Source: a virus (lineage: Duplodnaviria; Heunggongvirae; Uroviricota; Caudoviricetes). Taken from it: a DNA stretch of 16,405 bases. The position numbers were made by a program, and so were the translations under genes. The DNA lies in the IMG/VR virus record IMGVR_UViG_2563366929_000009; one strand, 5' to 3'. Positions within the stretch are counted from its first letter, which is position 1. Every line of letters begins with the position of its first letter. The notes beneath the pieces are model-generated. The model had not been told where the DNA came from. It worked only from the letters and a program-made list of their open reading frames with translations, and did no database searches. Of the stretch, positions 1-15,612 are shown piece after piece.

Positions 1-1131
1 TCAAATGACCAGTTTTTTCCATTCCTTACCGCGTGCGTCGTTGTAAATATCGGTCATTTTTTGATTCGAATGGCCCAGCAAAATTTTGGTATCAACCCCC
101 TGCTCTCTGAACAATCGCTCTGATAAAGATCTCTGCTCATGGAAAGAGGGTGGGGTGCCATTAGCACGCCAGTTGTAATCCACAGAATCCCGGGCTTTTT
201 TAAATGCAACGGTTAATGTTGCTGGCTTAACCATCCCGCCGCGCTTAGCTGTCCCTTTCGCGTGATGGTGGTGCAATAGCCACGGACTAAGAACGCAATC
301 GCGGCAGGATGACACCACATCATCTAGGGTGAGATTTAATTTATCGCAACGCAGAGCCAGAGGGATGGCAATCCGGGTTCCTGTTTTTTGCTGTTCGACA
401 TGAAGATAACCATCCCGGATATCCGAAAATTGCATTTTGCAAATATCTGAAAGGCGCTGGCCTGTCATCAGTGCCAGCAGCATACCGCGCTGTAAAAAGT
501 AACCATCCTTTTCCGCTGCGTTATAAATCATCATCCACTCATCAAAAGTCAGTCGCTGTCTTGATATCCGCACCTGCGGTTTTTTTGCCGATTCTGCAGG
601 GTTAAAGCCTGGCGGGACATCGCCCGTTTGCTGAGCTTCCCGGAAAACATCGATCAGTACTTTCCTGAAAATTTGTCCCATTCTGTTATGTCCTCTGGCC
701 TTGTACTCTTCCAGTACTGATACCACATCTTTTACGGTTATGGCATCTAACGGTCTGGTGCCAAAACGTTCATCAAATACCCTGAGAGGGGCCGCTTTCT
801 GTTTCAGCGTGTTGAGTTTGATCTCGCCGTTTTCATATCTTTCCTGTTGAATTTTTCTGTAATTATTCAGAAAAATGGTAACGGTTGATGAACCGCCGGT
901 GTCACTAATAATTTTCTCCTGCAGACTGAGCATTTGTTCCATTTGCTGCCGGGCAAGACGGCTGTTCGCTTCTGCTGCAATAGTTTCTGCCAGTTTCTGG
1001 TCAATACTGCCGAGACCGTGATTTTTGCCTGTTATGGGATGCCTGTAACGCCAGTAAACTTTGTTATTTCTTTTGTCAAAATATGGAGATAATCCCGGAA
1101 CATCGGTTTTATATTTTCGCGGGCGCGCCAT
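1..1131 (-). CDS. int: Phage tyrosine integrase (lambda Int-like)
   Basis: 376-aa minus-strand ORF. C-terminal segment (..ILLGHSNQKMTDIYNDARGKEW..) resembles the lambda Int catalytic C-terminus including the Tyr. Its start overlaps the end of the upstream excisionase by 23 nt, as in lambda xis-int. Stop codon is at window positions 1-3. Confidence 0.9.
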   Translation of the reverse strand: MARPRKYKTDVPGLSPYFDKRNNKVYWRYRHPITGKNHGLGSIDQKLAETIAAEANSRLARQQMEQMLSLQEKIISDTGGSSTVTIFLNNYRKIQQERYENGEIKLNTLKQKAAPLRVFDERFGTRPLDAITVKDVVSVLEEYKARGHNRMGQIFRKVLIDVFREAQQTGDVPPGFNPAESAKKPQVRISRQRLTFDEWMMIYNAAEKDGYFLQRGMLLALMTGQRLSDICKMQFSDIRDGYLHVEQQKTGTRIAIPLALRCDKLNLTLDDVVSSCRDCVLSPWLLHHHHAKGTAKRGGMVKPATLTVAFKKARDSVDYNWRANGTPPSFHEQRSLSERLFREQGVDTKILLGHSNQKMTDIYNDARGKEWKKLVI

Positions 1132-1357
1132 CTTCCAGTATCCTCTTCAAAGCAGGGTGATCTGTGGCGATCACCTCCGGCTTGTTTACCATTCCGACAA
1201 AGCGAGCTTGCGGATCCACTCGCCAGCGTCTTCCAACTTTTTTGGGGAGAGGAAATATCATTCCGGCTTTAGCGTATTTACTTAACGTACTCGGAGTAGG
1301 GACCGGTTCACTGAATTCCTCCTTTGTCCACTCAGTGAGCAGAATAAGTCTTGCCAT
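1109..1357 (-). CDS. xis: Excisionase (lambda Xis-like)
   Basis: 82-aa ORF immediately upstream of int and overlapping it. N-terminal LTEW and IFPLPKKVGRRWR motifs resemble lambda Xis (LTLQEW, IFPPPVKDGRE). No clear Shine-Dalgarno. Confidence 0.75.
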   Translation of the reverse strand: MARLILLTEWTKEEFSEPVPTPSTLSKYAKAGMIFPLPKKVGRRWRVDPQARFVGMVNKPEVIATDHPALKRILEDGAPAKI

Positions 1358-1421
1358 GAGCGTCGTTCGCTAATCATGGTCGCCGCCACTATAGCTGGTG
1401 GGCAACGACCGGGGTTGAACA

Positions 1422-3893
1422 TTAAAAATCAGCCTGATTTGGGATCAGTTTTTGCCAGATAGCTGAAACGTATTTTGCCTGGTAACGGGCGTCATCAAGT
1501 GCATTATGGCGCTCACCTTCGAATGGAATAGCCGTTCTGGCATCGAAGTCTATGGCTTTCCCCAGCTCAACGATTGTGCGTACATCGCGATCGTTGTAGT
1601 AACGCCACGGGCAGGGGATCCCCTGCCGTTCGTATGAACGGCGCAAAATCGTGTTGTCGAAGTTGGCTCCATTTCCCCAAACCTGAACAAAAAATTCACC
1701 GGAGTTTTCGTCGATAAATTCCCGCAATTGTAACAGTGCATCATCTAACGGGATTTCATCGGTCATAATGGCAGATTGCGCTTCGCGTGATTGCTTAAGC
1801 CACCATTTAATGGTGTCCCGATCAATGACTCCGCCAGCAGTTTCCAGATCGATAGTCTTACTAAATTCCGGTCCCATATCTCCGGTTTGCGGATCGAAAA
1901 ATATTGCACCTATTGAGATGATCGGGGCATCAGGATTTTTTCCCATGGTTTCAAGGTCGATCATTAGATGGTCACACGTCCTGCTGGTGGATGTGATTTC
2001 GTGATGACCGTTCACCTTAATTGGGTGATCTGCCGTCTCGCCAGTTTCATTATCGCTATTGTGATGCTGATTGCCGCCAGTGTTCTCCTTGTGTGGATGT
2101 TCAGCGCCTTCCATTTCCTCCGGATCATCTTCCTGAACTTCAACCTGATACTCTTCATCGAATGTTTCTTGGTATGTTGCGTCGCCCATCACCGCGCCAC
2201 AATCAGGACAGTTGCCGCCGCCGGTCTGACCGCAGGCGGTGCAGGCTTTTTCCACTTCCTGGTGCGCCACTGGTTCAGGCTGTTTCGTTTCTGGCTCGTT
2301 TTGTAACGCATTTGGACTGTTTTGTTCCGCTTTTTGGTAGTTCCGTTCCGATTCATGCTGGTTCTGGCTCACAGAATCGCGGGTCTGGATCCCCTTAATC
2401 CATTTCGGATCATTCGGGTCACTAATCCCTTCAACAAATTCACCACGTGATGCAGCAAGCAACTTATCGGCGTCAGGCTGGCTGATATTGGCTGCCTGCA
2501 TAATTTTGTTTACTTCGTCAGCGGTAACTTTTATCGGCTCTGGTTGTTCTGAATCTTCAGCGGTATCTACATTTTGCGGTAAGCCCGTGTATGTGCCATT
2601 TTTTCGGGCAAAATATTCTTCTTTTGTGATTTCAGTGGCGCCAGCAGCCAGTGCCTTATCCAGACCAGAAAGTTTGTTTGCGCGACCGTATTTTTCTCCG
2701 TCCTTATCTGCGAAGAGGAAATAGAACGGCCCCTCACGCTCTACAGATGGTTCAGCTTCCGGCGCGGTTTCATTTTTTGGGATATCAGATACCTCAGTTT
2801 CCACTGCATCAGTTTGTGTTTCTGATGACTGGAGAACATCAACAGTGCCCAGGTCTGTTTCTTCATTCTCAAACACGCCCTTTGTCGTCAGGTATTCGCA
2901 GATATATTTGTTCAGTGCTACGGGATCTTTGTGAATGTCGATCGGACGCTCACGGACAAGGCCAAAAATAGTTTGGCGGTCGTAGCGAAGGGCATCAGGC
3001 TGTTTGCGCATTGATGCCGAGATACGCTTCCAGTCTTCGCGGTCGTTGTCGATAACTTCTTTTTTTGCCCAGCGATGGATGCTGCCGTCAATGTTTCCGG
3101 CATCCACATCACCAGGCCAGAGAGCGTAGGCCAGTTCGTCATCCAGTGTTTTCCATGTCTGCTTGTATTCGCGATGAATGGCAGCAATGACCGGGCTGAT
3201 TTTTCCTGTTGAATTTTCAGTGTACTGTTGATTGGCTCTGGCGCGGGCGAGATCAACAACAGACGTGTATTTTCCGGTTTCCTTGCGTTCACCTTCGCGA
3301 CGTTTTTTCCAGATGCGCATCTCTGCCTGAATTTCGGGCCATTTAGCACCAGGAATACATTTATGCTTAACCCACCCAATGGCGTGCAACTTAAGCTCCG
3401 GATACATGGCGTTAACTTCTGGCATTTTCATCAACGCTTCAACGATATGTCCGTCGAATGTTGCCATGTCTTCCTGCAACAATTCCTGTGCGCTAATAAC
3501 CATATCAACGGTGATGTTTTCACATGTGTCGAACTTAACCATGACAGCGTTCTGTACTTCAGGGGCCAGCTTGTCAAAAGTGACGTTCATCGGATCGGAT
3601 TCAGTCTCGACCGGAACAAAGGAAGCAGACGCCTCATCCCAGCGGTTTTCCTGCATATATTCAGCATCCCAGGAATCGAGGGCAGGGCGGGGTATACCGG
3701 GTTTATCCTCGCAAACAAGAAATTTATAAGCGCAGTCCTGAGCAGCCGGATAATGTTCCAGGAATTGCCAGTGAAATTTTGCGCGGGCGCGACGTTCATC
3801 ACCGGCTTCAATGGCAGTGGCTACAGCGACGGCACCTTCTTCCTTTATTGCCTGTTCGTCCGGAATGGCGGCGCAAATAAAGACTTTACTCAT
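1422..3893 (-). CDS. Phage exonuclease, large multidomain protein with C-terminal DnaQ-like (DEDDh) 3'-5' exonuclease domain
   Basis: 823-aa ORF with GAGG Shine-Dalgarno 8 nt upstream of ATG. C-terminal ~180 aa carry DEDDh motifs: Exo I MIDLETMG, Exo II WGNGANFD, Exo III HNALDDARYQ. Central C-x2-C-x7-C-x2-C zinc-ribbon-like motif (CTACGQTGGGNCPDCG) and an acidic/His-rich low-complexity linker. Position matches the exo slot of the lambdoid recombination module. Confidence 0.8.
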   Translation of the reverse strand: MSKVFICAAIPDEQAIKEEGAVAVATAIEAGDERRARAKFHWQFLEHYPAAQDCAYKFLVCEDKPGIPRPALDSWDAEYMQENRWDEASASFVPVETESDPMNVTFDKLAPEVQNAVMVKFDTCENITVDMVISAQELLQEDMATFDGHIVEALMKMPEVNAMYPELKLHAIGWVKHKCIPGAKWPEIQAEMRIWKKRREGERKETGKYTSVVDLARARANQQYTENSTGKISPVIAAIHREYKQTWKTLDDELAYALWPGDVDAGNIDGSIHRWAKKEVIDNDREDWKRISASMRKQPDALRYDRQTIFGLVRERPIDIHKDPVALNKYICEYLTTKGVFENEETDLGTVDVLQSSETQTDAVETEVSDIPKNETAPEAEPSVEREGPFYFLFADKDGEKYGRANKLSGLDKALAAGATEITKEEYFARKNGTYTGLPQNVDTAEDSEQPEPIKVTADEVNKIMQAANISQPDADKLLAASRGEFVEGISDPNDPKWIKGIQTRDSVSQNQHESERNYQKAEQNSPNALQNEPETKQPEPVAHQEVEKACTACGQTGGGNCPDCGAVMGDATYQETFDEEYQVEVQEDDPEEMEGAEHPHKENTGGNQHHNSDNETGETADHPIKVNGHHEITSTSRTCDHLMIDLETMGKNPDAPIISIGAIFFDPQTGDMGPEFSKTIDLETAGGVIDRDTIKWWLKQSREAQSAIMTDEIPLDDALLQLREFIDENSGEFFVQVWGNGANFDNTILRRSYERQGIPCPWRYYNDRDVRTIVELGKAIDFDARTAIPFEGERHNALDDARYQAKYVSAIWQKLIPNQADF

Positions 3894-3993
3894 TTTGTTT
3901 TACCTCATTACAGATTTAAGGGTGAACAAATCCCTGCCGGTGATGCTGCCAACTTACTGATTTAGTGTATGATGGTGTTTTTGAGGTGCTCCA

Positions 3994-4269
3994 GTGGCTT
4001 CTGTTTCTATCAGCTGTCCCTCCTGTTCAGCTACTGACGGGGTGGTGCGTAACGGCAAAAGCACCGCCGGACATCAGCGCTATCTCTGCTCTCACTGCCG
4101 TAAAACATGGCAACTGCAGTTCACTTACACCGCTTCTCAACCCGGTACGTACCAGAAAATCATTGATATGGCCATGAATGGCGTTGGATGCCGGGCAACA
4201 GCCCGCATTATGGGCGTTGGCCTCAACACGATTTTACGTCACTTAAAAAACTCAGGCCGCAGTCGGTAA
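3994..4269 (+). CDS. insA: IS1 InsA (transposition inhibitor / N-terminal part of InsAB' transposase)
   Basis: 91-aa [27 protein letters not shown].. recognised as IS1 InsA. Confidence 0.9.
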
Positions 4270-4691
4270 CCTCGCGCATACAGCCGGGCAGTGATGTGAT
4301 TGTCTGCGCTGAAATGGACGAACAGTGGGGCTATGTCGGGGCTAAATCGCGCCAGCGCTGGCTGTTTTACGCGTATGACAGGCTCCGGAAGACGGTTGTT
4401 GCGCACGTATTCGGTGAACGCACTATGGCGACGCTGGGGCGTCTTATGAGCCTGCTGTCACCCTTTGACGTGGTGATATGGATGACGGATGGCTGGCCGC
4501 TGTATGAATCCCGCCTGAAGGGAAAGCTGCACGTAATCAGCAAGCGATATACGCAGCGAATTGAGCGGCATAACCTGAATCTGAGGCAGCACCTGGCACG
4601 GCTGGGACGGAAGTCGCTGTCGTTCTCAAAATCGGTGGAGCTGCATGACAAAGTCATCGGGCATTATCTGAACATAAAACACTATCAATAA
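4188..4691 (+). CDS. insB: IS1 InsB' reading frame (expressed as InsAB' transposase by -1 frameshift)
   Basis: -1 frame relative to insA and overlapping its 3' end; A6C slippery motif at 4243..4251. Sequence ..[30 protein letters not shown].. is typical IS1 InsB. Confidence 0.88.
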
Positions 4692-4784
4692 GTTGGAGTC
4701 ATTACCGAGAAAGATGATGTCTACATAGCCAATTGTATAGAAAAAGGTAAGACTGAATTTAAAGTAAGCAAAGATATTGCTGCG

Positions 4785-5159
4785 TTGCCTTTCAAGGGTG
4801 AACCCATCGAGAAAATTAGGGGAGAGCTAATCAGGTCAATCAAGGAACACTTGATCAGTGCAAGCTGGCATAGCACTAAAAAGGTAATCGACCGCTATGA
4901 AGCTACATTCGATATAAAAGTACAAAAAGACTGTCCGATAGAAGCTATTGAATTGGCAACCCTCAATCGAAATCACTTAGTGCATCGTGGTGGAAAGGAT
5001 AAAGAAGGGAACCTCGTAGTGATTACAGACCAGGATCTTGAAACGCTGATTGAAAATGCATCGAACCTGGCAATTATGCTCTACAACAGTTTAAATGTAG
5101 CAACGAATAAAACCACCATTTTGCAACCAGATGACAAACCGTTCATTCATGAATTTTAA
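4785..5159 (+). CDS. Hypothetical protein, probably a 5'-truncated remnant (frame open back to the IS1 junction at 4707)
   Basis: ORF-track start is TTG with no Shine-Dalgarno. The same frame stays open upstream to the insB stop at 4689..4691, with no ATG or GTG in between. AT-rich codon composition unlike the flanking prophage genes. No recognisable family motif. Confidence 0.45.
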   Translation: MPFKGEPIEKIRGELIRSIKEHLISASWHSTKKVIDRYEATFDIKVQKDCPIEAIELATLNRNHLVHRGGKDKEGNLVVITDQDLETLIENASNLAIMLYNSLNVATNKTTILQPDDKPFIHEF

Positions 5160-5174
5160 TAGCGCAGGTCATAC

Positions 5175-6176
5175 ATGGATATTCGCACACGAAAGACAAA
5201 ATTTTTAGAGTCGTTAGATTCAACTGAAGTGATACGCAAAGCAGTAAGTCTCGCTATAGATTGCATTATTGATAATCATAATAGTAATGAAGATACCCCC
5301 TTAGTTATTACCAGCTATGATGATCTCTGTAGAATCCAGGTGCTAAATTATGTACAGGAGTTTTGCGAAGCTGCATTCCCTGATATGGATGAATATTACT
5401 TTAGTCCTAACATACTTCGCATCAACGGCAAGACTAGTGAAGAAGCTTGTATTAACTTAATTAAACTCTTAAGAAGTACAAAAGGCATGCTATTCTGGTC
5501 CGATGCCCCATCGTGGTTCGCTAGCCTCCCCGACGGATTATTCCATGTTGTTAACATTGATCAAAAAATCGTTACTCGCGGCCTTAATAAGAAAAACTCT
5601 AAGCCGACAATAATCAATAAAGATTACAGTGTAGATACACTACTATCAGAGCTATTTTTGAATGGCGCACACATGGAGCAACCCAACGTACACAACGTTT
5701 CTGAGGGAAACATGAAGTTCTATGATGAATGCCATGCTGGATTAATCAGACCAATACCCGCTCCAATAGGCGCGTCATACGATGAAGAGATCACAATTAA
5801 TTCTCCAGATTGGCAAAAGCTCGCGTGTGTAGCTTTACGCCGCTATCAGTCGAAGGAATGTCATGACGGAATGCAATGGGATACAACCGATCATGGTTGG
5901 ACTGATGTAATCGCGTATCCATTCGTCGAAGAAATACAATCAATGGATAATAGTGGTTATCGACAATGTTTAGTTGGGCTGGTCACAATAAACAATTCAA
6001 ATGCAAATTCTCCGTACCTATCTACCGTTTGGATACATCCATTTTATCGCAGGAGAGGGTTATTAAGTAAGTTATGGCCAAAATTACAAGAGTTATATGG
6101 AAGTAACTTCGAAATTGAGCGACCTAATGAAAATATGAAAGCATTTCTGAAAAGTGCGAAACACGCAGATTACTAA
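5175..6176 (+). CDS. Hypothetical 333-aa protein with a C-terminal GNAT-acetyltransferase-like motif
   Basis: ATG with weak AGGT Shine-Dalgarno 5 nt upstream. Visibly AT-rich. C-terminal segment LVGLVTINN..YLSTVWIHPFYRRRGLLSKLWPKL resembles GNAT motif A (beta4-alpha3, V.P..RR.G). The N-terminal ~230 aa are unrecognised. Confidence 0.7.
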   Translation: MDIRTRKTKFLESLDSTEVIRKAVSLAIDCIIDNHNSNEDTPLVITSYDDLCRIQVLNYVQEFCEAAFPDMDEYYFSPNILRINGKTSEEACINLIKLLRSTKGMLFWSDAPSWFASLPDGLFHVVNIDQKIVTRGLNKKNSKPTIINKDYSVDTLLSELFLNGAHMEQPNVHNVSEGNMKFYDECHAGLIRPIPAPIGASYDEEITINSPDWQKLACVALRRYQSKECHDGMQWDTTDHGWTDVIAYPFVEEIQSMDNSGYRQCLVGLVTINNSNANSPYLSTVWIHPFYRRRGLLSKLWPKLQELYGSNFEIERPNENMKAFLKSAKHADY

Positions 6177-6492
6177 TTTATGAATCAGTCTGTGGAGTTA
6201 GGGTTGGTGTCAACAAGTAGGGTAAGAGCCTCAACGTGATGCTATGCCGACCTGCTCCCTGAGAATTCACACAGAAGGCTGCTAGCAATGTCTGCAGATC
6301 GCTCAAAGCGGACTAGAAGGTTAGCTTGCGTCGGACTTGGCGTATTTAAAGAAGTGCTGGTGGTGACTGGTTGTTGTGTTCCATTTCTACAGAACAAAAT
6401 CACAGAAACTATACCCAATAGTTATATTGAATCAATGATGAGACAGCCTCATATTTATCAGAACTGGTGTACGTCCAATACAGGAGGTTGTC

Positions 6493-6582
6493 GTGCTGGT
6501 TCTCAAATGTGCGCTAGCTATTGCGGCTGTAATGGCAATTTATTGTCTTGCTGTTGTTCTTATGGATCGCCTTTCTGATTGA
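6493..6582 (+). CDS. Candidate small hydrophobic peptide (29 aa: MLVLKCALAIAAVMAIYCLAVVLMDRLSD if GTG is read as Met)
   Basis: Near-consensus Shine-Dalgarno AGGAGG at 6482..6487, 5 nt before GTG at 6493. Single predicted transmembrane helix plus short charged tail. Possible -35 TTGAAT / -10 CATATT about 40-60 nt upstream. Below the ORF-track size cutoff. Confidence 0.3.
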   Translation: MLVLKCALAIAAVMAIYCLAVVLMDRLSD

Positions 6583-6793
6583 TTTTATATTGGCGAGGTG
6601 ACGGGAGTTAAGTAGAATTGCTGCGGGTGCTTGAGGCTATCTGCCTCAGGCATGAACACCAAAGGCAGATAGAGAAAAGCCCCAGTTAATATTACGCGTC
6701 CTGCAAGACGCTTAACATTAATCTGAGGCTCAATCTATGAACGGCAAATCTAGGTTAGCCTCTTACGTGCCGAAAGGCAAGGAGAAGCAGGCT

Positions 6794-6949
6794 ATGAAGC
6801 AGCAAAAGGCGATGTTAATCGCCCTGATCGTCATCTGTTTAACCGTCATAGTGACGGCACTGGTAACGAGGAAAGACCTCTGCGAGGTACGAATCCGAAC
6901 CGGCCAGACGGAGGTCGCTGTCTTCACAGTTTACGAACCTGAGGAGTAA
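6794..6949 (+). CDS. hokD: Hok/Gef-family type I toxin (HokD/RelF-like, 51 aa)
   Basis: MKQQKAMLIALIVICLTVIVTALVTRKDLCEVRIRTGQTEVAVFTVYEPEE is near-identical to my recollection of HokD. GGAGA Shine-Dalgarno 9 nt upstream. The in-frame upstream extension from 6737 (ORF-track 70-aa ORF) may be a mok-like leader ORF. Hairpin GGCGAGGG-agaaat-CCCTCGCC follows the stop, as at hok mRNA 3' ends. Confidence 0.85.
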   Translation: MKQQKAMLIALIVICLTVIVTALVTRKDLCEVRIRTGQTEVAVFTVYEPEE

Positions 6950-6987
6950 GAGACCCGGCGAGGGAGAAATCCCTCGCCACCTCTGAT

Positions 6988-7395
6988 GTGTCAGGCATCC
7001 TCAACGCACCCGCACGTAACCCGCTTCGGCGGGTTTTGTTTTTTCCTGGCATTCTGGTTTACAATTCGCACGCCAGCCTGAACAACTGGCACCTGCTGCG
7101 CCAGCAGAGACAACCGATGGCGCACGATACCAAATTACACAATTCTGATGATTCTGCCGTCTTTGCCAGCAGGCACGGGCGGCGTTCCCGCACTTTCAAA
7201 TCTGACTGGTTCCAGCATCCCCCATGCACTGAAGAACAGGCCGAGTGGCTAATTCAGTGCTACCGCAGACACGGATACGAGATTAAGAAAGCCCTCAGCC
7301 TCGATTATCGTCACTGGATAATCTCCGTCAGGCTTCCTTACTCCGAACGATCACCGCGTCCGTCCCGCACATTCCAGCAACGCATCTGGAGGTAA
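6988..7395 (+). CDS. Hypothetical protein (start uncertain: GTG 6988 or ATG 7117); occupies the rem-like slot between hok and the DUF968 gene
   Basis: Open frame ending at TAA 7393..7395, one nucleotide before the downstream gene; that gene's GGAGG Shine-Dalgarno lies inside its 3' end. GC-rich composition like neighbouring prophage genes. No family recognised. Confidence 0.4.
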   Translation: MSGILNAPARNPLRRVLFFPGILVYNSHASLNNWHLLRQQRQPMAHDTKLHNSDDSAVFASRHGRRSRTFKSDWFQHPPCTEEQAEWLIQCYRRHGYEIKKALSLDYRHWIISVRLPYSERSPRPSRTFQQRIWR

Positions 7396-7396
7396 C

Positions 7397-8443
7397 GTGC
7401 GAGTATTACTTCGACCTGTTCTGGTACCGGAACTCGGGCTGGTGATCGTTAAGCCGGGCCGTGAATCCATGCCGGTATTCCACAATACCCGGGTACTGGT
7501 GGAGCCGGAACCGAAAAGCATGCGTAATCTGCCGTCCGGGGTTGTTCCTGCCGTTCGCCAGCCGCTAGTGGAAGACAAAACATTGCTGCCGTTTTTCAGT
7601 AACGCACGGGTGATTCGTGCTGCTGGTGGTGCTGGTGCATTGTCTGACTGGCTGTTGCGCCATATTAAATCCTGCCAGTGGCCACACGGCGATTATCATC
7701 ACAGCGAAACCGTCATTCACCGTTATGGTACCGGCGCAATGGTGTTGTGCTGGCACTGCGACAACCAGCTGCGTGACCAGACATCCGAATCACTCGAGCA
7801 ACTTGCTCATCAAAACCTGTCAGCATGGATGATTGACGTCATACTCCATGCAATGAATGGCTCGCAGGAACGGGAATTATCGCTGGCTGAATTATCCTGG
7901 TGGGCGGTCCGCAATCAGGTGGCGGACGCGCTACCGGAAGCGGTATTACGTCGTTCGCTGGGGTTGCGTGCGGAAAAAATCCGCTCAATGTACCGTGAAA
8001 GCGACATCGTACCGGGAGAGCAGACCGCCACCAGCATACTGAAGCAGCGCACAAAAAATCTTGCGCCGCTGCCTCACGCCCACCAGCAAAACCCGCCACA
8101 GGAAGAGACGGTGGTCAGCATTGCCGTTGATCCTGAGTCTCCGGAATCTTTCATGAAACGACCTAAACGTCGCCGCTGGGTTAACGAGAAATACACACGC
8201 TGGGTGAAGACACAGCCGTGTGCGTGTTGTGGTAAGCCAGCCGACGATCCCCATCACCTGATTGGTCATGGTCAGGGCGGAATGGGGACAAAATCTCACG
8301 ATATTTTCACGCTACCGCTGTGTCGGGAGCATCACAACGAGCTTCATGCGGATCCTCTGGCGTTCGAAGAAAAGCATGGTTCTCAGGTTGATTTAATTTT
8401 TCGTTTTCTTGATCACGCCTTTGCAACTGGCGTGCTTGGGTAA
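7397..8443 (+). CDS. DUF968 / YdfU-like lambdoid nin-region protein with C-terminal Cys/His (HNH-like) cluster
   Basis: 348-aa ORF, GTG start with GGAGG Shine-Dalgarno. C-terminus CACCGKPADDPHHLIGHGQGGMGTKSHDIFTLPLCREHHNELH. Sits immediately upstream of rusA and Q, as ydfU does in Qin-type prophages. Confidence 0.75.
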   Translation: MRVLLRPVLVPELGLVIVKPGRESMPVFHNTRVLVEPEPKSMRNLPSGVVPAVRQPLVEDKTLLPFFSNARVIRAAGGAGALSDWLLRHIKSCQWPHGDYHHSETVIHRYGTGAMVLCWHCDNQLRDQTSESLEQLAHQNLSAWMIDVILHAMNGSQERELSLAELSWWAVRNQVADALPEAVLRRSLGLRAEKIRSMYRESDIVPGEQTATSILKQRTKNLAPLPHAHQQNPPQEETVVSIAVDPESPESFMKRPKRRRWVNEKYTRWVKTQPCACCGKPADDPHHLIGHGQGGMGTKSHDIFTLPLCREHHNELHADPLAFEEKHGSQVDLIFRFLDHAFATGVLG

Positions 8444-8455
8444 AAGAGGTGACTG

Positions 8456-8830
8456 ATGCTCATAGATTTGGTTTTACCTTACCCGCCGACGGTGAACACT
8501 TACTGGCGACGCCGTGGCAGCACATATTTTATCTCGGAGGAGGGAAAGCGTTATCGCCGGGCTGTGGCGCTTATTGTTCGCCAGCAGCGGCTGAAATTAA
8601 GCCTGTCCGGAAGGCTGGCGATAAAGGTGATTGCAGAGCCACCGGATAAGCGTCGTCGCGACCTGGACAATATCCTGAAAGCACCGCTGGATGCGCTGAC
8701 GCATGCGGGAGTGTTAATGGACGATGAGCAGTTTGATGAAATCAATATCGTTCGTGGTCAGCCAGTATCTGGTGGACGTATGGGGGTGAAGATTTACCCC
8801 ATAATGCATGAAGAGCAGGTCAAAAAATGA
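8456..8830 (+). CDS. rusA: RusA Holliday-junction resolvase
   Basis: 124 aa. Motifs ..PPTVNTYWRR.. and ..PDKRRRDLDNILKAPLDALTHAGVLMDDEQ.. match the RusA family (catalytic Asp cluster). AGGTGA Shine-Dalgarno. Confidence 0.9.
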   Translation: MLIDLVLPYPPTVNTYWRRRGSTYFISEEGKRYRRAVALIVRQQRLKLSLSGRLAIKVIAEPPDKRRRDLDNILKAPLDALTHAGVLMDDEQFDEINIVRGQPVSGGRMGVKIYPIMHEEQVKK

Positions 8831-9648
8831 AACTGGAAGATTTACCGAAATACTACTCCCCAAAATCCCCTGGCCTGACCGATGCATCGGCCTCAACGTC
8901 AAAAGATGCGCTGAGTATCACTGATGTGATGGCCGCGCAGGGCATGACACAGAATCGGGCTGAGATGGGGTTTTCTGCGTTCCTGGGGAAAATGGGCATC
9001 AGTATGAATGACAGGGCGCGGGCAACAGAATTACTGGCAGATTATGCACTCAGTCGGTGCGATCGTGTGGCGGCGTTGAGAAAACTTCCGGCAGAAATAA
9101 AACCGGTAGTGATGCGCATTATGGCTTCGTATGCGTTTGAAGATTATGCCCGTAGCGCGGCGAGCAAAAAACAGTGCCCTTGCTGTCACGGAAAAAAATT
9201 TATTGAAAGCGAGGTTTTTACAAACAAGATCCAGTATCCGGATGGTAAGCCACCAGTGTGGGCAAAGTGCACAAAAGGCGTGTATCCGTCTTACTGGGAA
9301 GAATGGAAAAAAGTCAGGGAGGTGGTAAAAGTTGCCTGTCCGGAGTGTGGCGGAAAGGGTGAGGTTTCCACCGCCTGTAAGGATTGCCGTGGGCGTGGTG
9401 TCGCCATTCATCGTGAAGAGTCGGTAAAACGTGGTATGCCTGTTATCAGAGATTGCCAGCGTTGTGGTGGTCGTGGCTGTGAAAGGCTGCCATCAACGGA
9501 GGCATTTAATGCCATATGCAAAGTGACGAGTGCTATCACGCTTGATACGTGGAAAAAATCAGTGAAACGCTTTTACGATACGTTGGTGGTTCGGTTTGAC
9601 ATTGAAGAGGCATGGGCGGAGCGGCAGTTAAAGAGGGTAACGCGATAG
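8827..9648 (+). CDS. Q: Late-gene antitermination protein Q-like
   Basis: 273 aa. Start overlaps the rusA stop (ATGA). Lies directly upstream of a pR'-like promoter. Carries four CxxCxGxG-type Cys repeats (CPCCHGKK, CPECGGKG, CKDCRGRG, CQRCGGRG). Confidence 0.8.
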   Translation: MKLEDLPKYYSPKSPGLTDASASTSKDALSITDVMAAQGMTQNRAEMGFSAFLGKMGISMNDRARATELLADYALSRCDRVAALRKLPAEIKPVVMRIMASYAFEDYARSAASKKQCPCCHGKKFIESEVFTNKIQYPDGKPPVWAKCTKGVYPSYWEEWKKVREVVKVACPECGGKGEVSTACKDCRGRGVAIHREESVKRGMPVIRDCQRCGGRGCERLPSTEAFNAICKVTSAITLDTWKKSVKRFYDTLVVRFDIEEAWAERQLKRVTR

Positions 9649-10220: not shown

Positions 10221-11270
10221 ATGCTTAATACTGTAAAAATATCCAGTTGTGAGTTAATCAACGCCGACTGCCTGGAATTTATCCGGTCGTTACCCGAAAA
10301 TTCTGTTGACCTGATAGTCACGGACCCGCCGTACTTTAAAGTGAAGCCTGAGGGCTGGGATAACCAGTGGAAGGGCGACGATGATTACCTGAAGTGGCTG
10401 GACCAGTGTCTGGCGCAGTTCTGGCGGGTGCTGAAACCTGCCGGAAGTCTTTACCTGTTCTGTGGTCATCGCCTGGCATCTGATATCGAAATCATGATGC
10501 GTGAACGCTTCAGTGTGCTGAACCATATTATCTGGGCGAAGCCGTCCGGACGCTGGAACGGATGCAACAAGGAAAGGCTGCGGGCGTATTTCCCCGCCAC
10601 AGAGCGCATTCTGTTCGCGGAACATTATCAGGGGCCGTATCGTCCGAAAGATGCCGGGTATGCGGCGAAGGGCAGTGCACTGAAACAGCATGTGATGGCC
10701 CCGCTGATTTCTTACTTTCGTGATGCGCGCGCGGCCCTGGGGATAACGGCAAAACAGATTGCAGATGCCACAGGAAAGAAAAACATGGTGTCGCACTGGT
10801 TCAGTGCCAGTCAGTGGCAGCTACCGAATGAAAGCGATTATCTGAAATTACAGGCGCTGTTTGCCCGGGTGGCAGAAGAGAAGCATCGGCGTGGTGAACT
10901 GGAAAAGCTCCACCACCAGCTGGTGGATACGTATACCTCACTGAACCGGCAGTATGCGGAGCTGCTGAGTGAATATAAACATCTGCGGCGGTATTTTGGC
11001 GTGACGGTGCAGGTGCCGTATACCGATGTGTGGACGCATAAACCGGTGCAGTTCTATCCCGGGAAACATCCGTGCGAAAAACCGGCAGAAATGCTGCAGC
11101 AGATAATCAGCGCAAGTAGCCGTCCTGGTGATCTGGTTGCGGATTTTTTCATGGGGTCGGGTTCAACGGTAAAAGCGGCGATGGCACTGGGGCGTCGTGC
11201 GATTGGTGTTGAGCTGGAGACCGGACGTTTTGAGCAGACAGTCAGGGAAGTTCAGGATTTAATCGTTTGA
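10221..11270 (+). CDS. Orphan DNA amino-methyltransferase, beta-class (N6-adenine or N4-cytosine)
   Basis: 349 aa. Catalytic DPPY motif near the N-terminus (SVDLIVTDPPYF) and AdoMet-binding FxGxG (FFMGSGST) near the C-terminus. Motif IV before motif I indicates beta-class. No adjacent restriction-endonuclease gene. Confidence 0.88.
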   Translation: MLNTVKISSCELINADCLEFIRSLPENSVDLIVTDPPYFKVKPEGWDNQWKGDDDYLKWLDQCLAQFWRVLKPAGSLYLFCGHRLASDIEIMMRERFSVLNHIIWAKPSGRWNGCNKERLRAYFPATERILFAEHYQGPYRPKDAGYAAKGSALKQHVMAPLISYFRDARAALGITAKQIADATGKKNMVSHWFSASQWQLPNESDYLKLQALFARVAEEKHRRGELEKLHHQLVDTYTSLNRQYAELLSEYKHLRRYFGVTVQVPYTDVWTHKPVQFYPGKHPCEKPAEMLQQIISASSRPGDLVADFFMGSGSTVKAAMALGRRAIGVELETGRFEQTVREVQDLIV

Positions 11271-11319: not shown

Positions 11320-11395
11320 GGCCCTTTAGCTCAGTGGTGAGAGCGAGCGACTCATAATCGCCAGGTCGCTGGTTCAAATCCAGCAAGGGCCACCA
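11320..11395 (+). tRNA. ileZ: tRNA with CAT anticodon, most likely tRNA-Ile2 (lysidine-type, ileZ-like); tRNA-Met not excluded
   Basis: 76 nt with encoded CCA. Acceptor stem GGCCCTT/AAGGGCC, D-arm AGCTCAGTGGTGAGAGC, anticodon loop CTCATAA, T-arm GGTTCAAATCC. Resembles my recollection of E. coli ileX. Confidence 0.85.
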
Positions 11396-11402
11396 TCACA
11401 TA

Positions 11403-11479
11403 CCGCCATTAGCTCATCAGGAAAGAGCGCCAGCCTTCGAAGCTGGTTGCGCGGAGTTCGGGTCCCCGAAGGCGGTCCA
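11403..11479 (+). tRNA. tRNA-like sequence with UCG (Arg) anticodon; degenerate, possibly a pseudogene
   Basis: Cloverleaf can be drawn (anticodon loop CTTCGAA) but with A.A mismatch in the acceptor stem, a mismatch in the T-stem and an atypical T-loop TTCGGGT (G at the conserved A58 position). Confidence 0.45.
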
Positions 11480-11492
11480 TTATCTGTATCCT

Positions 11493-11569
11493 GCGTTGTT
11501 AGCTCAGCCGGACAGAGCAATTGCCTTCTAAGCAATCGGTCACTGGTTCGAATCCAGTACAACGCGCCA
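11493..11569 (+). tRNA. tRNA-Arg (anticodon UCU)
   Basis: 77 nt. Acceptor GCGTTGT/ACAACGC, discriminator G and CCA. Anticodon stem ATTGC/GCAAT with loop CTTCTAA. T-arm GGTTCGAATCC. Confidence 0.85.
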
Positions 11570-11828: not shown

Positions 11829-12018
11829 TGTGCCGGATACATCACAGTTTCTGGAACCTTAGGTACTACAGTATCAGTCAGGGTGCTATATTTTCAGATG
11901 TGATGAAAGCCTGTCAGCAGGCAGGGCGTATCGGAAATGACCCAGTAGAGAAAACGTTGACTCAGATACCGGTGCTGAGTTACCGGGAAACCGGCATCAC
12001 ATGACCGCTATCCTTCCA

Positions 12019-12045
12019 GGCCCATCCGCTCCGGTGGGCCTTTTT
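12019..12045 (+). terminator. Intrinsic terminator
   Basis: GGCCCA ... TGGGCC stem with 10-nt loop followed by T5. Confidence 0.55.
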
Positions 12046-12082
12046 ACTGCAGAAAACAGGTTCCCCGTTAAATGCTATGTTG

Positions 12083-12316
12083 CTCACAATTCAGTAAGTT
12101 GACAGTTGCCTGTCAGACTGGGCATTTGTTAAAAAAATTTCGCATGGTGAATCCCCCTGAGCGGAGGGGCGACTGGTGACGGTATAATCTCTGATTATCA
12201 AAACGAGAATGACGCGGGTTTAGTGGCACCGGGCTGAACTCACCGGGAGGCACCCGGCACCATGTGCATGATGATACAGATACGCGGCTTTAGCCCCTCT
12301 CCGGAGGGGTTTTCTT
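12083..12316 (+). repeat. Structured unit B (paralogue of unit A)
   Basis: Same conserved module set as unit A. Includes consensus -35 TTGACA (12099..12104) and consensus -10 TATAAT (12183..12188). Terminator CCCCTC-tccg-GAGGGG + TTTT at 12294..12316. Confidence 0.6.
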
Positions 12317-12322
12317 GTGGGC

Positions 12323-12351
12323 AAAAAAAGCCCGCGCTGGGAGACGCGGGC
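12323..12351 (-). terminator. Minus-strand intrinsic terminator, back-to-back with the unit B terminator
   Basis: A7 run followed by GCCCGCG-ctgggaga-CGCGGGC. On the minus strand this reads as stem-loop plus U7. Confidence 0.5.
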
Positions 12352-12544
12352 GGCAAGGAATAAACAATAAAACGTGAAGTAATATTTCAGCTGGCGAATA
12401 ATACCCCATAGTAATCACTCTGCGCAACTGCGCGGTCTTTTTCGAATTGCGGGCTGTCGTCTCTCTTCTGCCATTGTCCTGTAACTTCCGGACTTCAGCC
12501 CGCTCCTTATTTTACTCACAATATTATCCCGGCCGGGAGGATTC

Positions 12545-12772
12545 ATGGCATTTAAACACTATGACGTGGTCAGGGCGGTATCGCCGTCAGACCTTGCGAA
12601 ACGACTGACACAAAAACTGAAGGAGGGCTGGCAGCCGTTTGGTAGTCCGGTGGCCATAACCCCTTATACCCTGATGCAGGCGATTGCAGCAGAAGGTGAT
12701 GTGGTGGTCAGTGGTGCAACTGAGCCGGATTGGTACTACGTCATCGTACTGGCCCGGCATTCCAGGCCATAA
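12545..12772 (+). CDS. Hypothetical small protein (75 aa)
   Basis: Good GGGAGG Shine-Dalgarno 4 nt before ATG. Upstream region repeats short blocks of units A and B (CTCACAAT, CCGGGAGG). No family recognised. Confidence 0.6.
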   Translation: MAFKHYDVVRAVSPSDLAKRLTQKLKEGWQPFGSPVAITPYTLMQAIAAEGDVVVSGATEPDWYYVIVLARHSRP

Positions 12773-12976
12773 AAGACAGTCTGGCAGTGGGACTAAATGC
12801 ACTGACGCTGATGGATATTACCAAAAATGTAACGTATGGCGTTGAGATAGAAAGTCTGGCGCTGGAGATAAATGCACCGGCATCATCATAAAAAGTGAGC
12901 CAGTCAAATGGAAGGTATCGTTAAACTCACCGGTAGTGTCAGTGGGTCGTCTGAGACGCTTGCATGAGTTATCAGA

Positions 12977-13005
12977 GCCATCAGTAGTTAACTGGTGGCT
13001 TTTTT
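12977..13005 (+). terminator. Intrinsic terminator immediately upstream of the holin gene
   Basis: 9-bp stem GCCATCAGT / ACTGGTGGC (one G.U), loop AGTTA, followed by T6. Confidence 0.7.
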
Positions 13006-13040
13006 ATTGTTTTCAGCTTCCGGATAACGGGAGACGGGGT

Positions 13041-13256
13041 ATGGACCAGATGGAAAAAATCACAACAGGTGTGTCATACACCACGTCAGCGGTGGGAACG
13101 GGCTACTGGTTCCTGCAGTTGCTGGACAGGGTTTCCCCGTCTCAGTGGGCGGCAATAGGCGTGCTGGGGAGTCTGCTGTTTGGGCTGCTGACATATCTGA
13201 CTAACCTGTATTTCAAAATCAGAGAGGACCGTCGTAAGGCGGCACGGGGAGAGTAA
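13041..13256 (+). CDS. S: Class II holin (phage 21 S21-type pinholin), dual-start motif
   Basis: [71 protein letters not shown] is very similar to my recollection of S21. Met1 and Met4 give an antiholin/holin dual start. GGGAGA Shine-Dalgarno. The ORF-track upstream extension from 12936 is not supported. Confidence 0.9.
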
Positions 13257-13260
13257 TTCA

Positions 13261-13605
13261 ATGACTCAAAACTATGAACTGATTGTGAAAGGGATCCGCA
13301 ATTTTGAGAATAAAGTTACGGTAACTTTAGCATTACAGGACAAAGAACGCTTTGACGGTGAAATTTTTGACCTGGACATCTCGCTGGACCGTGTTGAAGG
13401 TGCTGCGCTGGAGTTTTATGAGGCAGCGGCCAGAAGGAGCATCAGACAGGTCTTCCTGGATGTCGCTGCCGGGTTATGTGAAGGGGATGAGCAGTCGCCG
13501 GAAAAGCGCCCCGTAATTTTAGAGGCGCAGAATGTATGGATAACCTACAAAGGAAAGCTACCGGGAAGGATTACTGGTTCCCTGAAGACTCCGCCGAAAT
13601 GGTAG
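13261..13605 (+). CDS. Hypothetical protein in the holin-endolysin interval (ydfR-like position)
   Basis: 114-aa ORF with GGGAGAG Shine-Dalgarno, starting 5 nt after the holin stop. Family not recognised from sequence. Confidence 0.65.
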   Translation: MTQNYELIVKGIRNFENKVTVTLALQDKERFDGEIFDLDISLDRVEGAALEFYEAAARRSIRQVFLDVAAGLCEGDEQSPEKRPVILEAQNVWITYKGKLPGRITGSLKTPPKW

Positions 13606-13843
13606 TTTTGCCAGCATAATTTTCTTCCAGCAATGCCGCCAGCCACTTGAAAGAATTTTGTTGTTCCTGGGACCATTTGGGGTTGCGTGATTCAAAATGA
13701 ATGGATGCCAGCGTTGGCAGCATTTGCTCCCTGGGAATTGATAAGGCCAGATGTGAAAATGCAACAGTGAGGGCATTTACATCATCCCGAAGCCTGGAAA
13801 TGCAGTCGAGCAACTCCTGTAGAGAAATGGTGCTATTGTCCAT
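13571..13843 (-). CDS. Candidate antisense-oriented gene (90 aa) inside the lysis cassette
   Basis: Minus-strand ORF with good AGAGGA Shine-Dalgarno 6 nt before ATG. Its 3' end overlaps the 3' end of the 13261..13605 ORF by 35 bp (convergent). No family recognised. Confidence 0.4.
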   Translation of the reverse strand: MDNSTISLQELLDCISRLRDDVNALTVAFSHLALSIPREQMLPTLASIHFESRNPKWSQEQQNSFKWLAALLEENYAGKTTISAESSGNQ

Positions 13844-13948
13844 AAATAATCCTCTTGATTGTCTTTACCTTTTCCCCGCCTGATTCAACAGGCCGGGACA
13901 GATAAACATATCCAGGGTTCAGAAACCGATAAATCCTGATAAATATCC

Positions 13949-14482
13949 ATGAACGCAAAAATCAAATACGGCCTGTCAGCTGCAGTTCTGGCGCTGATTG
14001 GAGCAGGCGCATCAGCTCCTCAGATACTTGACCAGTTTCTGGATGAAAAAGAGGGTAACCACACTACGGCATACCGCGATGGTTCCGGCAACTGGACCAT
14101 CTGTCGGGGGGCCACGATGGTGGATGGAAAACCCGTTTTTCCCGGTATGAAACTGTCGAAGGAAAAATGCGACCAGGTCAACGCCATTGAGCGTGATAAG
14201 GCGCTGGCATGGGTGGAGAAAAACATCAAAGTGCCATTGAGCGAACCCCAGAAAGCGGGGATCGCGTCATTCTGTCCGTACAACATTGGTCCCGGTAAGT
14301 GTTTCCCGTCGACGTTTTATAAACGAATTAATGCAGGTGATCGCAGGGGAGCGTGTGAGGCGATTCGCTGGTGGATTAAGGACGGTGGCAGAGACTGCCG
14401 TATTCGTTCAAACAACTGCTACGGTCAGGTATCCCGTCGTGACCAGGAGAGCGCGCTGGCGTGCTGGGGTATCGACAGATAA
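13949..14482 (+). CDS. R: SAR endolysin (phage 21 R21-type lysozyme)
   Basis: 177 aa. N-terminal signal-anchor-release segment (LSAAVLALIGAGASAP) and lysozyme catalytic region (..DEKEGNHTTAYRDGSGNWTICRG..). Confidence 0.9.
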   Translation: MNAKIKYGLSAAVLALIGAGASAPQILDQFLDEKEGNHTTAYRDGSGNWTICRGATMVDGKPVFPGMKLSKEKCDQVNAIERDKALAWVEKNIKVPLSEPQKAGIASFCPYNIGPGKCFPSTFYKRINAGDRRGACEAIRWWIKDGGRDCRIRSNNCYGQVSRRDQESALACWGIDR

Positions 14483-14576
14483 GCAGAATATTTTGCTGAA
14501 AAATAAGGCATGGCCACGCGGGCGGATAACATGAAATCCTGCGAAGTGGCGAAACGTAAGTGAATAAAAGTAAAAA

Positions 14577-14606
14577 CCCCGTTTGTTGGCACCAAGCGGG
14601 GTTTTG
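14577..14606 (+). terminator. Intrinsic terminator between endolysin and Rz
   Basis: 9-bp stem CCCCGTTTG / CAAGCGGGG (one G.U), 7-nt loop, then TTTT. Preceded by AAAA, so it may act bidirectionally. Confidence 0.65.
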
Positions 14607-14680
14607 TGTTTCCTGACTCCGGAAAAGTCAAAGGAGAAAGTGTGTTTGATTTTAGCAAACTGATTCGGGAGATTCGAGTG

Positions 14681-14779
14681 ATGGCTGAAAAATTATCCAC
14701 CTGGAAGTTCATTCTTATCTGGCTGGTGTTTGTGATTATGGCCTCTGGTTATTTCATCGGTCAGATACGCTGGTGGTGA
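14681..14779 (+). CDS. Candidate small membrane peptide (32 aa; alternative GTG start at 14642 gives 45 aa)
   Basis: [32 protein letters not shown] has a single hydrophobic helix. AGGAG at 14633 and GGGAG at 14667 could each serve as Shine-Dalgarno. Stop TGA is 1 nt before the Rz ATG. Below the ORF-track size cutoff. Confidence 0.35.
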
Positions 14780-14780
14780 A

Positions 14781-15245
14781 ATGAACCGCGTACTGTGCGT
14801 GGTCATCATTGCCCTGCTGGTGGCCTGTGGTGCGCTTAGTCTGGGGCTGAATCATTACCGTGATAACGCCATTACCTACAAAGCCCAGCGCGACAAAAAT
14901 GTCAGAGAACTGAAGCTGGCGAACGCGGCAATTACTGACATGCAGATGCGTCAGCGTGATGTTGCTGCGCTCGATGCAAAATACACGAAGGAGTTAGCTG
15001 ATGCGAAAGCTGAAAATGATGCTCTGCGTGATGATGTTGCCGCTGGTCGTCGTCGGTTGCACATCAAAGCAGTCTGTCAGTCAGTGCGTGAAGCCACCAC
15101 CGCCTCCGGCGTGGATAATGCAGCCTCCCCCCGACTGGCAGACACCGCTGAACGGGATTATTTCACCCTCAGAGCGCGACTGATAATAATGCAAAAACAA
15201 CTTGAAGGGGCACAGCTATACATTCGAGAGCAATGCCTCAGATAA
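14781..15245 (+). CDS. Rz: Rz i-spanin (lambda-type)
   Basis: 154 aa, near-identical over most of its length to my recollection of lambda Rz (..[107 protein letters not shown]..). Confidence 0.88.
15001..15183 (+). CDS. Rz1: Rz1 o-spanin lipoprotein (embedded in Rz, +1 frame)
   Basis: 60 aa. Lipobox-like VVGC after a hydrophobic signal, proline-rich mature part ([16 protein letters not shown]). Fully embedded in Rz as in lambda. Confidence 0.8.
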
Positions 15246-15612
15246 AAACCGGCCAAGGATAATCCGCTGAAGATTCGCCGGTGGCTAAAGTGTGCCAAGA
15301 GTTCAATTTACGCAATTACTCCTGTCGATGCTATGTACCGTCTTTGTGAAGTCAATGGATACCTGATTTATTTCTGTGCGCTGTATCGTCGCTGTACTCT
15401 TGCATTAATTATGACTGTAGCCTGACGGGGAACTCCTTCTGCACAAGTGTGGGGGAATAATCAAAAACGATGCACACCGGGGTTACCGGGTACACATATT
15501 TCATCATGCCAGCGAGTCCGGTTCTGGCACGGAAGAAACCGGACGTTATGATTTAGTGCGGAAATATTTGTGTAGTGTTCTGAATGTTCTCAGTAAAGAG
15601 TAATGAATTATC

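Follow-up and report, generated by a model that had tools for sequence, protein, structure and literature searches.

What does a reading frame that points against its neighbours do inside the lysis cassette of a prophage, and is it a gene at all? The question is raised by the DNA of IMG/VR record IMGVR_UViG_2563366929_000009 (Caudoviricetes), a lambdoid Escherichia coli prophage of which the whole stretch of 16,405 nucleotides was analysed and is here called the window. In its lysis region, an open reading frame (ORF) of 90 amino acids on the minus strand, ORF90 (13571..13843, ATG start), lies in the gene order holin, ydfR, ORF90 (reverse), endolysin. Comparison with related sequences shows that ORF90 is a real protein-coding gene under purifying selection, and that the segment on which it lies is accessory and occupies a cargo hotspot. 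ORF90 is a phage moron and as such an ordinary kind of phage extra gene. As to its role, we lean, with some reserve, towards the explanation that it is a genuine accessory moron on an exchangeable segment, which has its own promoter in the repressed prophage and encodes a host-modulating binder.

An initial annotation of this DNA had described the 90-amino-acid minus-strand ORF with its AGAGGA Shine-Dalgarno sequence, and both are there, the AGAGGA (13850..13855, minus strand) standing 6 nt 5' of the ATG. The GAGGA core is kept in 10 of 10 distinct haplotypes that cover the stretch 13820-13960. Also the 35-bp overlap with the convergent plus-strand ORF 13261..13605 was described correctly; it is a tail-to-tail overlap of the two 3' ends (13571..13605). 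The ORF had been placed between holin and endolysin, which holds for the endolysin side, but its plus-strand partner is ydfR (DUF1327) and not the holin.

Conservation and selection

Antisense ORFs of 88-168 amino acids occur several times in the window, and the length of ORF90 alone is therefore not above chance. It thus has to be considered that the segment is a non-coding filler or a remnant, the frame of which is open by chance or owes its status to an annotation artefact. These similar-length ORFs elsewhere would fit such a view, as would the truncation of some copies and the fact that no promoter was found, but the pattern of variation speaks clearly against it. In a population set of 83 related loci from IMG/VR, E. 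coli and E. ruysiae, which reduce to 26 nucleotide haplotypes, the full 90-amino-acid frame is kept in 80 loci, with an internal stop in one and a frame that is one codon short in two. Variation among the haplotypes is in excess at the third codon position (17, 17 and 41 variable sites at positions 1, 2 and 3), and the ratio of nonsynonymous to synonymous polymorphism (pN/pS) is 0.32 in the ORF90 frame and 0.29 when the overlap with ydfR is left out. Four other frames with few or moderate numbers of stops have a pN/pS of 0.86-1.6, and one antisense frame is also low (0.29), but its wobble positions coincide with those of ORF90 and it contains 3-4 stops in every copy. Every frame other than ORF90 thus has either stops or a ratio near 1. 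In pairwise comparisons, the ratio of nonsynonymous to synonymous substitution rates (dN/dS, omega) of ORF90 is 0.20-0.41, with Fisher p-values as low as 3e-6; the window compared with strain 4/0 gives a dN of 0.103 and a dS of 0.452 (one-sided Fisher p 1.4e-5).

The initial annotation had suggested a comparison of dN/dS for both overlapping genes across relatives. This gives an omega of 0.29-0.35 for ORF90 and of 0.38-0.41 for ydfR, so that both are constrained, and values of 0.14 for the holin and 0.11 for the endolysin. The constraint on ORF90 is close to that on ydfR and weaker than that on holin and endolysin. Stops in the minus-strand frame next to a conserved plus-strand frame, which had been named as the sign of a false gene, are not what homologous regions contain: they keep the minus-strand frame open, and the plus-strand frames across the segment have stops or evolve neutrally. 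A plus-strand ORF of 60 amino acids (13701-13883) was considered as an alternative coding frame and rejected, as it has no Pfam match and, like the other frames, has stops or an omega near 1.

Independent of the population data, the family model of PHROG 2411 matches ORF90 over its full length (residues 1-90 against profile positions 1-90, E 5.5e-55), and all of the 35 diverse members of the ORF90 family that were compared also match this PHROG. The ORF90 product is identical to RefSeq WP_001351274.1, which is a PGAP annotation and has the UniProt name Ybl58, and the exact sequence occurs on at least 1000 public contigs. In a copy in which the region is only 86.5 % identical, PGAP calls the same coordinates as WP_000369850.1. 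The E. coli B strain B-DidR has the region in a version that is 91 % identical. Homologues in other genera, which are only 24-34 % identical, keep the core residues, and the AlphaFold2 model of the protein is a confident one, with a mean predicted local distance difference test score (pLDDT) of 82. That the ORF is spurious is hardly credible and is rejected by this evidence from selection and homology, and the expectation of the initial annotation that a genuine reverse-oriented gene is present at this position has held. The ORF had been annotated before as a hypothetical protein and as a PHROG member, and it is the proof of its coding status that is new.

The cargo segment and its limits

An alignment with an allele that lacks ORF90 delimits the replaceable cargo segment to about 290 bp (13601..13890): homology stops at 13601 and resumes at about 13891. 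The empty allele has about 18 bp in place of the 290-bp segment, and ydfR ends there with different last few residues. With a G+C content of 45.5 %, the segment is somewhat lower than its surroundings (ydfR 48.4 %, holin 54.2 %, endolysin 53.2 %), although the difference is modest. The presence or absence of ORF90 among collinear cassettes, its own Shine-Dalgarno sequence and the somewhat lower G+C content are in line with the behaviour of a moron, as had been proposed in the initial annotation. The limits of the cargo segment have not been described before.

Within the segment, a portable core can be recognized that consists of the Shine-Dalgarno sequence and codons 1-76 (13615..13856, minus strand), to which the DNA homology (72 %) with a plasmid-borne paralogue is confined. 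The last approximately 14 codons of ORF90, some of which are antisense to ydfR, are peculiar to this junction, vary across the family and are predicted to be disordered. The 5' end of ORF90 together with the Shine-Dalgarno sequence (13791-13850) is the most conserved part of the region, the directly adjoining 13851-13880 is the most variable stretch, and very high conservation returns in the shared stretch 5' of the endolysin gene (13881-13970). A short imperfect hairpin at the segment's right edge, 5' of ORF90, can be read from the sequence (13874..13897, CCCCGCCTG-ATTCAA-CAGGCCGGG); a C-C mismatch that it has in the window is an A-T pair in one haplotype.

The left edge falls into the end of ydfR. 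Proteins of the YdfR family (PHROGs 406, 2091, 1085 and 2735) share a conserved N-terminal part of about 80 amino acids, and their C-terminal ends and lengths (103, 114, 116 and 268 amino acids) are highly variable. It follows that recombination has a boundary at the 3' end of ydfR.

A hotspot for reverse-oriented cargo

Of 5426 complete E. coli genomes, 1125 (20.7 %) carry the core of ORF90, nearly always on the chromosome, and the carriers of the gene include the species type strain, strains of extraintestinal pathogenic E. coli and a phage that converts to Shiga toxin (Stx) type 2k. Other genomes have empty alleles, in which ydfR is directly followed by the lysozyme gene in otherwise collinear cassettes, and again others have a different gene at the same place. 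Three such ORFs occur at the ydfR-endolysin junction, all in the reverse orientation like ORF90, of similar size (79-104 amino acids) and all annotated as hypothetical: an 86-amino-acid ORF of PHROG 2572 in 314 of the 5426 genomes, a 79-amino-acid ORF of PHROG 21218 in 103, and a 104-amino-acid ORF of PHROG 1853 in 90, the last being gp06 of the Stx2-converting phage 86 and present also in O104:H4. In hhalign comparisons, none of the three has any detectable similarity to ORF90 (probability below 1 %). A likeness of the 79-amino-acid protein that can be seen by eye (FSVLD..IIHQL as compared to FSLDD..LIHSL) has no statistical support, a protein search with the 79-amino-acid protein returned close relatives only, and phrog_386, which is weakly matched by both this protein and members of the ORF90 family (E about 0.01-0.03), is too weak a match to be used.

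Cargo in reverse orientation thus has a hotspot at the ydfR-endolysin junction, and the existence of this hotspot with four alternative occupants is new. A reverse gene at this position is thus common and not exceptional, and the assessment of the initial annotation that it would be unusual was overstated: at least four different small reverse ORFs use this junction, and in the window itself also DUF1398 and ynfO are reverse. Of the 50,697 records of a phage collection, 370 resemble this lysis region in their DNA, and ORF90 was found by tblastn in only three, namely Chlobot, vB_EcoS-783R2 and phiSTEC1575-Stx2k. In phiSTEC1575-Stx2k, the block of holin, ydfR and ORF90 is joined to a different set of holin and endopeptidase genes.

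A well-known counterpart is bor of phage lambda, the classical moron in the late region of lambdoid phages, which is located after Rz and runs counter to the late operon. Its product, a lipoprotein, has a known serum-resistance phenotype, and the promoter of bor has been mapped. Like bor, ORF90 is a small extra gene of only some collinear phages that is located within the lysis module or next to it, has the opposite orientation to the late operon and differs slightly in base composition from its flanks. Unlike bor, it encodes a predicted soluble helical protein and has its place in the cassette itself, where it stands between ydfR and the endolysin gene and overlaps ydfR by 35 bp.

Homologues outside the junction

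With an exhaustive search by hidden Markov model and a search by profile, proteins that are 24-34 % identical to ORF90 were found in Serratia, Chania, Gibbsiella, Chimaeribacter, Sodalis and Acerihabitans, and closer homologues of about 54 % identity in Citrobacter. The distant homologues share the core ELL..I..LR..VN.L..AFSYLAFS...E..L..TI.AL.FES.N, with L11, I15, L25, A28, F29, Y31, L32, F34, E51, N54, F65, L68 and A69 as conserved residues. The orthologue (X) of Serratia marcescens, S. rubidaea and Chimaeribacter stands alone at a fixed site of the chromosome, in the order pyrC-dinI-X-bssS-solA, of which dinI and bssS are direct neighbours in E. coli K-12. The S. marcescens protein is present on at least 1000 contigs and so behaves as a product of a core gene. 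In the Serratia locus, dinI, which lies 5' of X, is equipped with a LexA box and a terminator of its own, and in an alignment of the upstream regions of Serratia and Chimaeribacter the dinI terminator alone is conserved. There are further members in quite different surroundings: an orphan chromosomal copy in Sodalis ligni, a metagenomic member among stress-type genes (DUF892, DUF1883, HxlR), and a plasmid-borne E. coli paralogue of 60-65 % identity downstream of an AIDA-type autotransporter. This wider family without a Pfam entry and with core orthologues in Serratia is new, as it is not recorded under PHROG 2411, WP_001351274.1 or Ybl58.

In phages, the family is found in two more arrangements. 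A Citrobacter freundii prophage has the gene directly 5' of the holin-lysozyme genes and divergent from them, and in another lambdoid contig it lies antisense beside the terminase genes, at the border of lysis and terminase modules. In every phage context that was found, the gene points against the late operon.

The initial annotation had considered a lysis regulator. Such a protein would tune the holin, the endolysin or YdfR, for example by blocking premature lysis or by antagonizing YdfR. The position fits, since ORF90 is embedded in the E. coli lysis cassette and overlaps ydfR, and since the related prophages have the gene directly 5' of the holin or at the lysis/terminase border, but the orientation is opposite to that of the late operon, and lysis-gene flanks are general insertion sites for morons in lambdoid phages. 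The gene is moreover missing from most cassettes of this kind, being found by tblastn in three phage records as compared to 370 with a similar lysis region, and it does not occur in the empty alleles. Among the called neighbours of the non-phage homologues, chromosomal or plasmid-borne, there are neither lysis genes nor ydfR-like (DUF1327) genes. That homologues are core chromosomal genes in Serratia and occur on plasmids argues against a lysis-specific role. ORF90 also has no membrane segment, no Pfam match and no match to a PHROG of the lysis category. It probably does not belong to the lysis machinery itself, and a regulator of the lysis module is quite improbable.

The ORF90 protein

The ORF90 product is an acidic protein of 10.1 kDa (pI 4.95) that has no transmembrane segment, the highest Kyte-Doolittle mean over 19 residues being 0.83. 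With a diverse alignment, AlphaFold2 predicts three helices (residues 8-35, 38-52 and 59-81; mean pLDDT 82, predicted template modelling score 0.55), and with a first, shallower alignment it had predicted four (pLDDT 74). Residues 80-90 have a pLDDT below 50 and are predicted to be disordered. By sequence and model, the protein is a soluble helical bundle with a disordered tail.

No function could be assigned by comparison. Scans of ORF90 against Pfam and NCBIfam gave no meaningful match, the NCBIfam model 'Mip' being hit with an E-value of 0.08 and 12.6 bits against a cutoff of 50, and a Pfam scan of 35 diverse family members at E <= 1 gave only scattered chance matches. A profile search of PDB sequences returned nothing below E 0.3, a Foldseek search of the better AlphaFold2 model against the PDB nothing below E 1.8, and in a literature search no paper was found on ORF90, its PHROG or any family member.

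An immunity or defence factor had been the other suggestion of the initial annotation, and the junction could indeed be a variable slot for defence, superinfection-exclusion or counter-defence cargo, of which ORF90 would be one conflict allele. At least four small reverse ORFs without detectable mutual similarity, together with empty alleles, form a pattern that is typical of conflict loci, the constraint on ORF90 is moderately relaxed, and its orientation fits an expression from the repressed prophage. The defence models of PADLOC-DB 2.0, however, matched neither ORF90 nor three of its homologues at E <= 1, there is no partner gene, and neither enzymatic nor membrane features are present in the protein. 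In Serratia and Chimaeribacter, the orthologues are, unlike conflict genes, conserved as single-copy core genes at one fixed chromosomal site. Conflict cargo is thus an unlikely explanation. Taken together, nothing points to a regulator of lysis, an immunity factor or a defence factor: the protein lacks a transmembrane segment and matches in PADLOC and Pfam, and it has homologues that belong to the chromosomal core in Serratia and to plasmids in E. coli.

Expression and function

ORF90 is opposite in orientation to the Q-dependent late operon, and because it points against this operon, it is not expressible as part of it. According to the explanation that we favour, that of an accessory moron with its own promoter, ORF90 would be transcribed, as long as the prophage is repressed, from a promoter that is weak or regulated, and convergent late transcription would silence it after induction, as with classical morons such as bor of phage lambda. 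The protein would bind to a host protein, or possibly a phage protein, and would thereby be a small cytoplasmic modulator of host physiology or of a stress response. The small size, the predicted fold, the lack of catalytic or membrane features and the status as a core gene in Serratia are the reasons to suggest such a modulator.

Several points weigh against this explanation. A scan with the sigma-70 consensus finds no promoter 5' of ORF90. The best candidates of a position weight matrix, a -35 element at 13933 with a -10 element at 13905-13910 and TTGAAT/GACAAT at 13888-13858, reach 6.6-6.8 bits, a score that occurs by chance about 3-4 times per kb and strand in the window. An omega of about 0.3 is fairly relaxed, and some copies of ORF90 are truncated or frameshifted. 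In all three of its phage contexts, the family is found within the lysis module or next to it, and its role could after all be linked to lysis. Family members carry no functional annotation and no structural relative was found, and the binding of a partner as a modulator is a guess from size, fold and contexts.

As to other signals, no LexA box was seen by eye 5' of ORF90 or of its Serratia orthologue, and Rfam covariance models, with which 12000-15400 was searched, gave no match at E <= 1 in 13500-13950, STnc100 being the only strong match. A candidate intrinsic terminator (13502..13528, minus strand) begins 43 nt after the ORF90 stop and consists of a 7-bp G+C-rich stem, a 9-nt loop and UUUU. 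It lies inside the ydfR coding sequence, is present also in alleles without cargo, and is not called by a stricter scan.

Such a convergent and overlapping arrangement, with only a modest terminator-like hairpin downstream that lies within ydfR, could also be read as a source of RNA, and it might be the transcript rather than the protein that matters: an antisense RNA to ydfR, and possibly to the holin gene, could dampen leaky late expression in lysogens. This is very improbable in view of the clear constraint at the protein level and of distant protein homologues in unrelated DNA contexts; the other cargo ORFs of this site have no detectable sequence in common, and no promoter was identified that would produce such an RNA. 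An antisense RNA could nevertheless have a role alongside the function of the protein.

For the proposed modulator, three small proteins can be named as possible functional analogues, although this analogy is a guess. IraP, IraM and BssS are small helical regulatory 'connector' proteins of enterobacteria, of similar size to ORF90 and with the same cytoplasmic location. IraM is in addition a reverse-strand moron that lies 5' of the holin in related prophages, and BssS is encoded by the chromosomal neighbour of the Serratia orthologue. At the sequence level, hhalign comparisons of ORF90 with IraP, IraM and BssS gave probabilities of only 0.1-0.35 %.

YdfR of E. coli K-12 is reported, in the only relevant paper that a literature search on ydfR returned, to bind to the N-terminal domain of RNase E and possibly to RNA (PMC13232886), and a putative functional link between ORF90 and YdfR is conceivable. 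A broader possibility would be that the junction is a dedicated antisense 'cargo slot' for at least four small helical proteins that is filled in about 30 % of the E. coli genomes. Its occupants would form an allelic series that takes part in conflicts between phage and host or between phages, or that modulates YdfR, and ORF90 would have been exchanged with the conserved chromosomal gene of Serratia. This is rather improbable, but if it were true, the slot would represent a new class of small prophage-borne effectors.

The practical yield of the analysis is modest, as it corrects the impression of an unusual gene and sets the limits of the cargo segment, and reveals no new mechanism. The proof of coding, the exchangeable cargo at a hotspot and the Serratia orthologues nevertheless make a tractable start for an uncharacterised family.

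The surrounding prophage

The window corresponds to the chromosome of E. coli ATCC 11775 (CP033092.2, near 2.71 Mb), from which its last 5.2 kb differ by one mismatch and one G in a homopolymer. It begins with an integrase gene (1-1131) and a gene for an exonuclease-domain protein (1422-3893), both on the minus strand. The transposase ORFs of an IS1 lie at about 3965-4691. On the plus strand follow DUF968 (7397-8443), RusA (8456-8830), the Q antiterminator (8827-9648), a DNA methylase (10221-11270) and three tRNA genes (11320-11569). The lysis region, also on the plus strand, consists of a phage-21-type class II holin (13041-13256), ydfR (DUF1327, PHROG 406; 13261-13605), the 3' end of which is overlapped by ORF90, an endolysin of the phage lysozyme family (13949-14482) and Rz (14781-15245), and the two other reverse-strand genes of the late region, DUF1398 and ynfO, lie 3' of Rz. 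Among the large ORFs scanned between the integrase/exonuclease genes and DUF968/RusA/Q (1-9648), neither a repressor nor a replication module was seen, and the prophage is therefore probably defective.

The position of the tRNA cluster 3' of the DNA methylase gene is an arrangement as in Stx-type phages. The anticodons are CAT, which is assigned to Met by ARAGORN and to Ile by PGAP, Arg-TCG and Arg-TCT. About 700 bp 5' of the holin gene, the plus strand has a strong match to the Rfam small-RNA family STnc100 (12113-12322; 161 bits, gathering score 47). At a G-run near 14106, the window is one G shorter than CP033092.2, and because of this one G the lysozyme gene is intact in the window and annotated as frameshifted in CP033092.2; the difference could come from a sequencing error in the homopolymer or from phase-type variation. 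The gap of about 300 bp between the endolysin gene and Rz (14483-14780), which contains a strong terminator-like hairpin (14573-14605, plus strand) and a small ORF annotated as hypothetical, has the look of a second insertion within the lysis cassette. Another reverse-strand cargo gene is the anti-adaptor gene iraM, which lies directly 5' of the same holin in related prophages and is placed between stx2 and the holin in phiSTEC1575-Stx2k.

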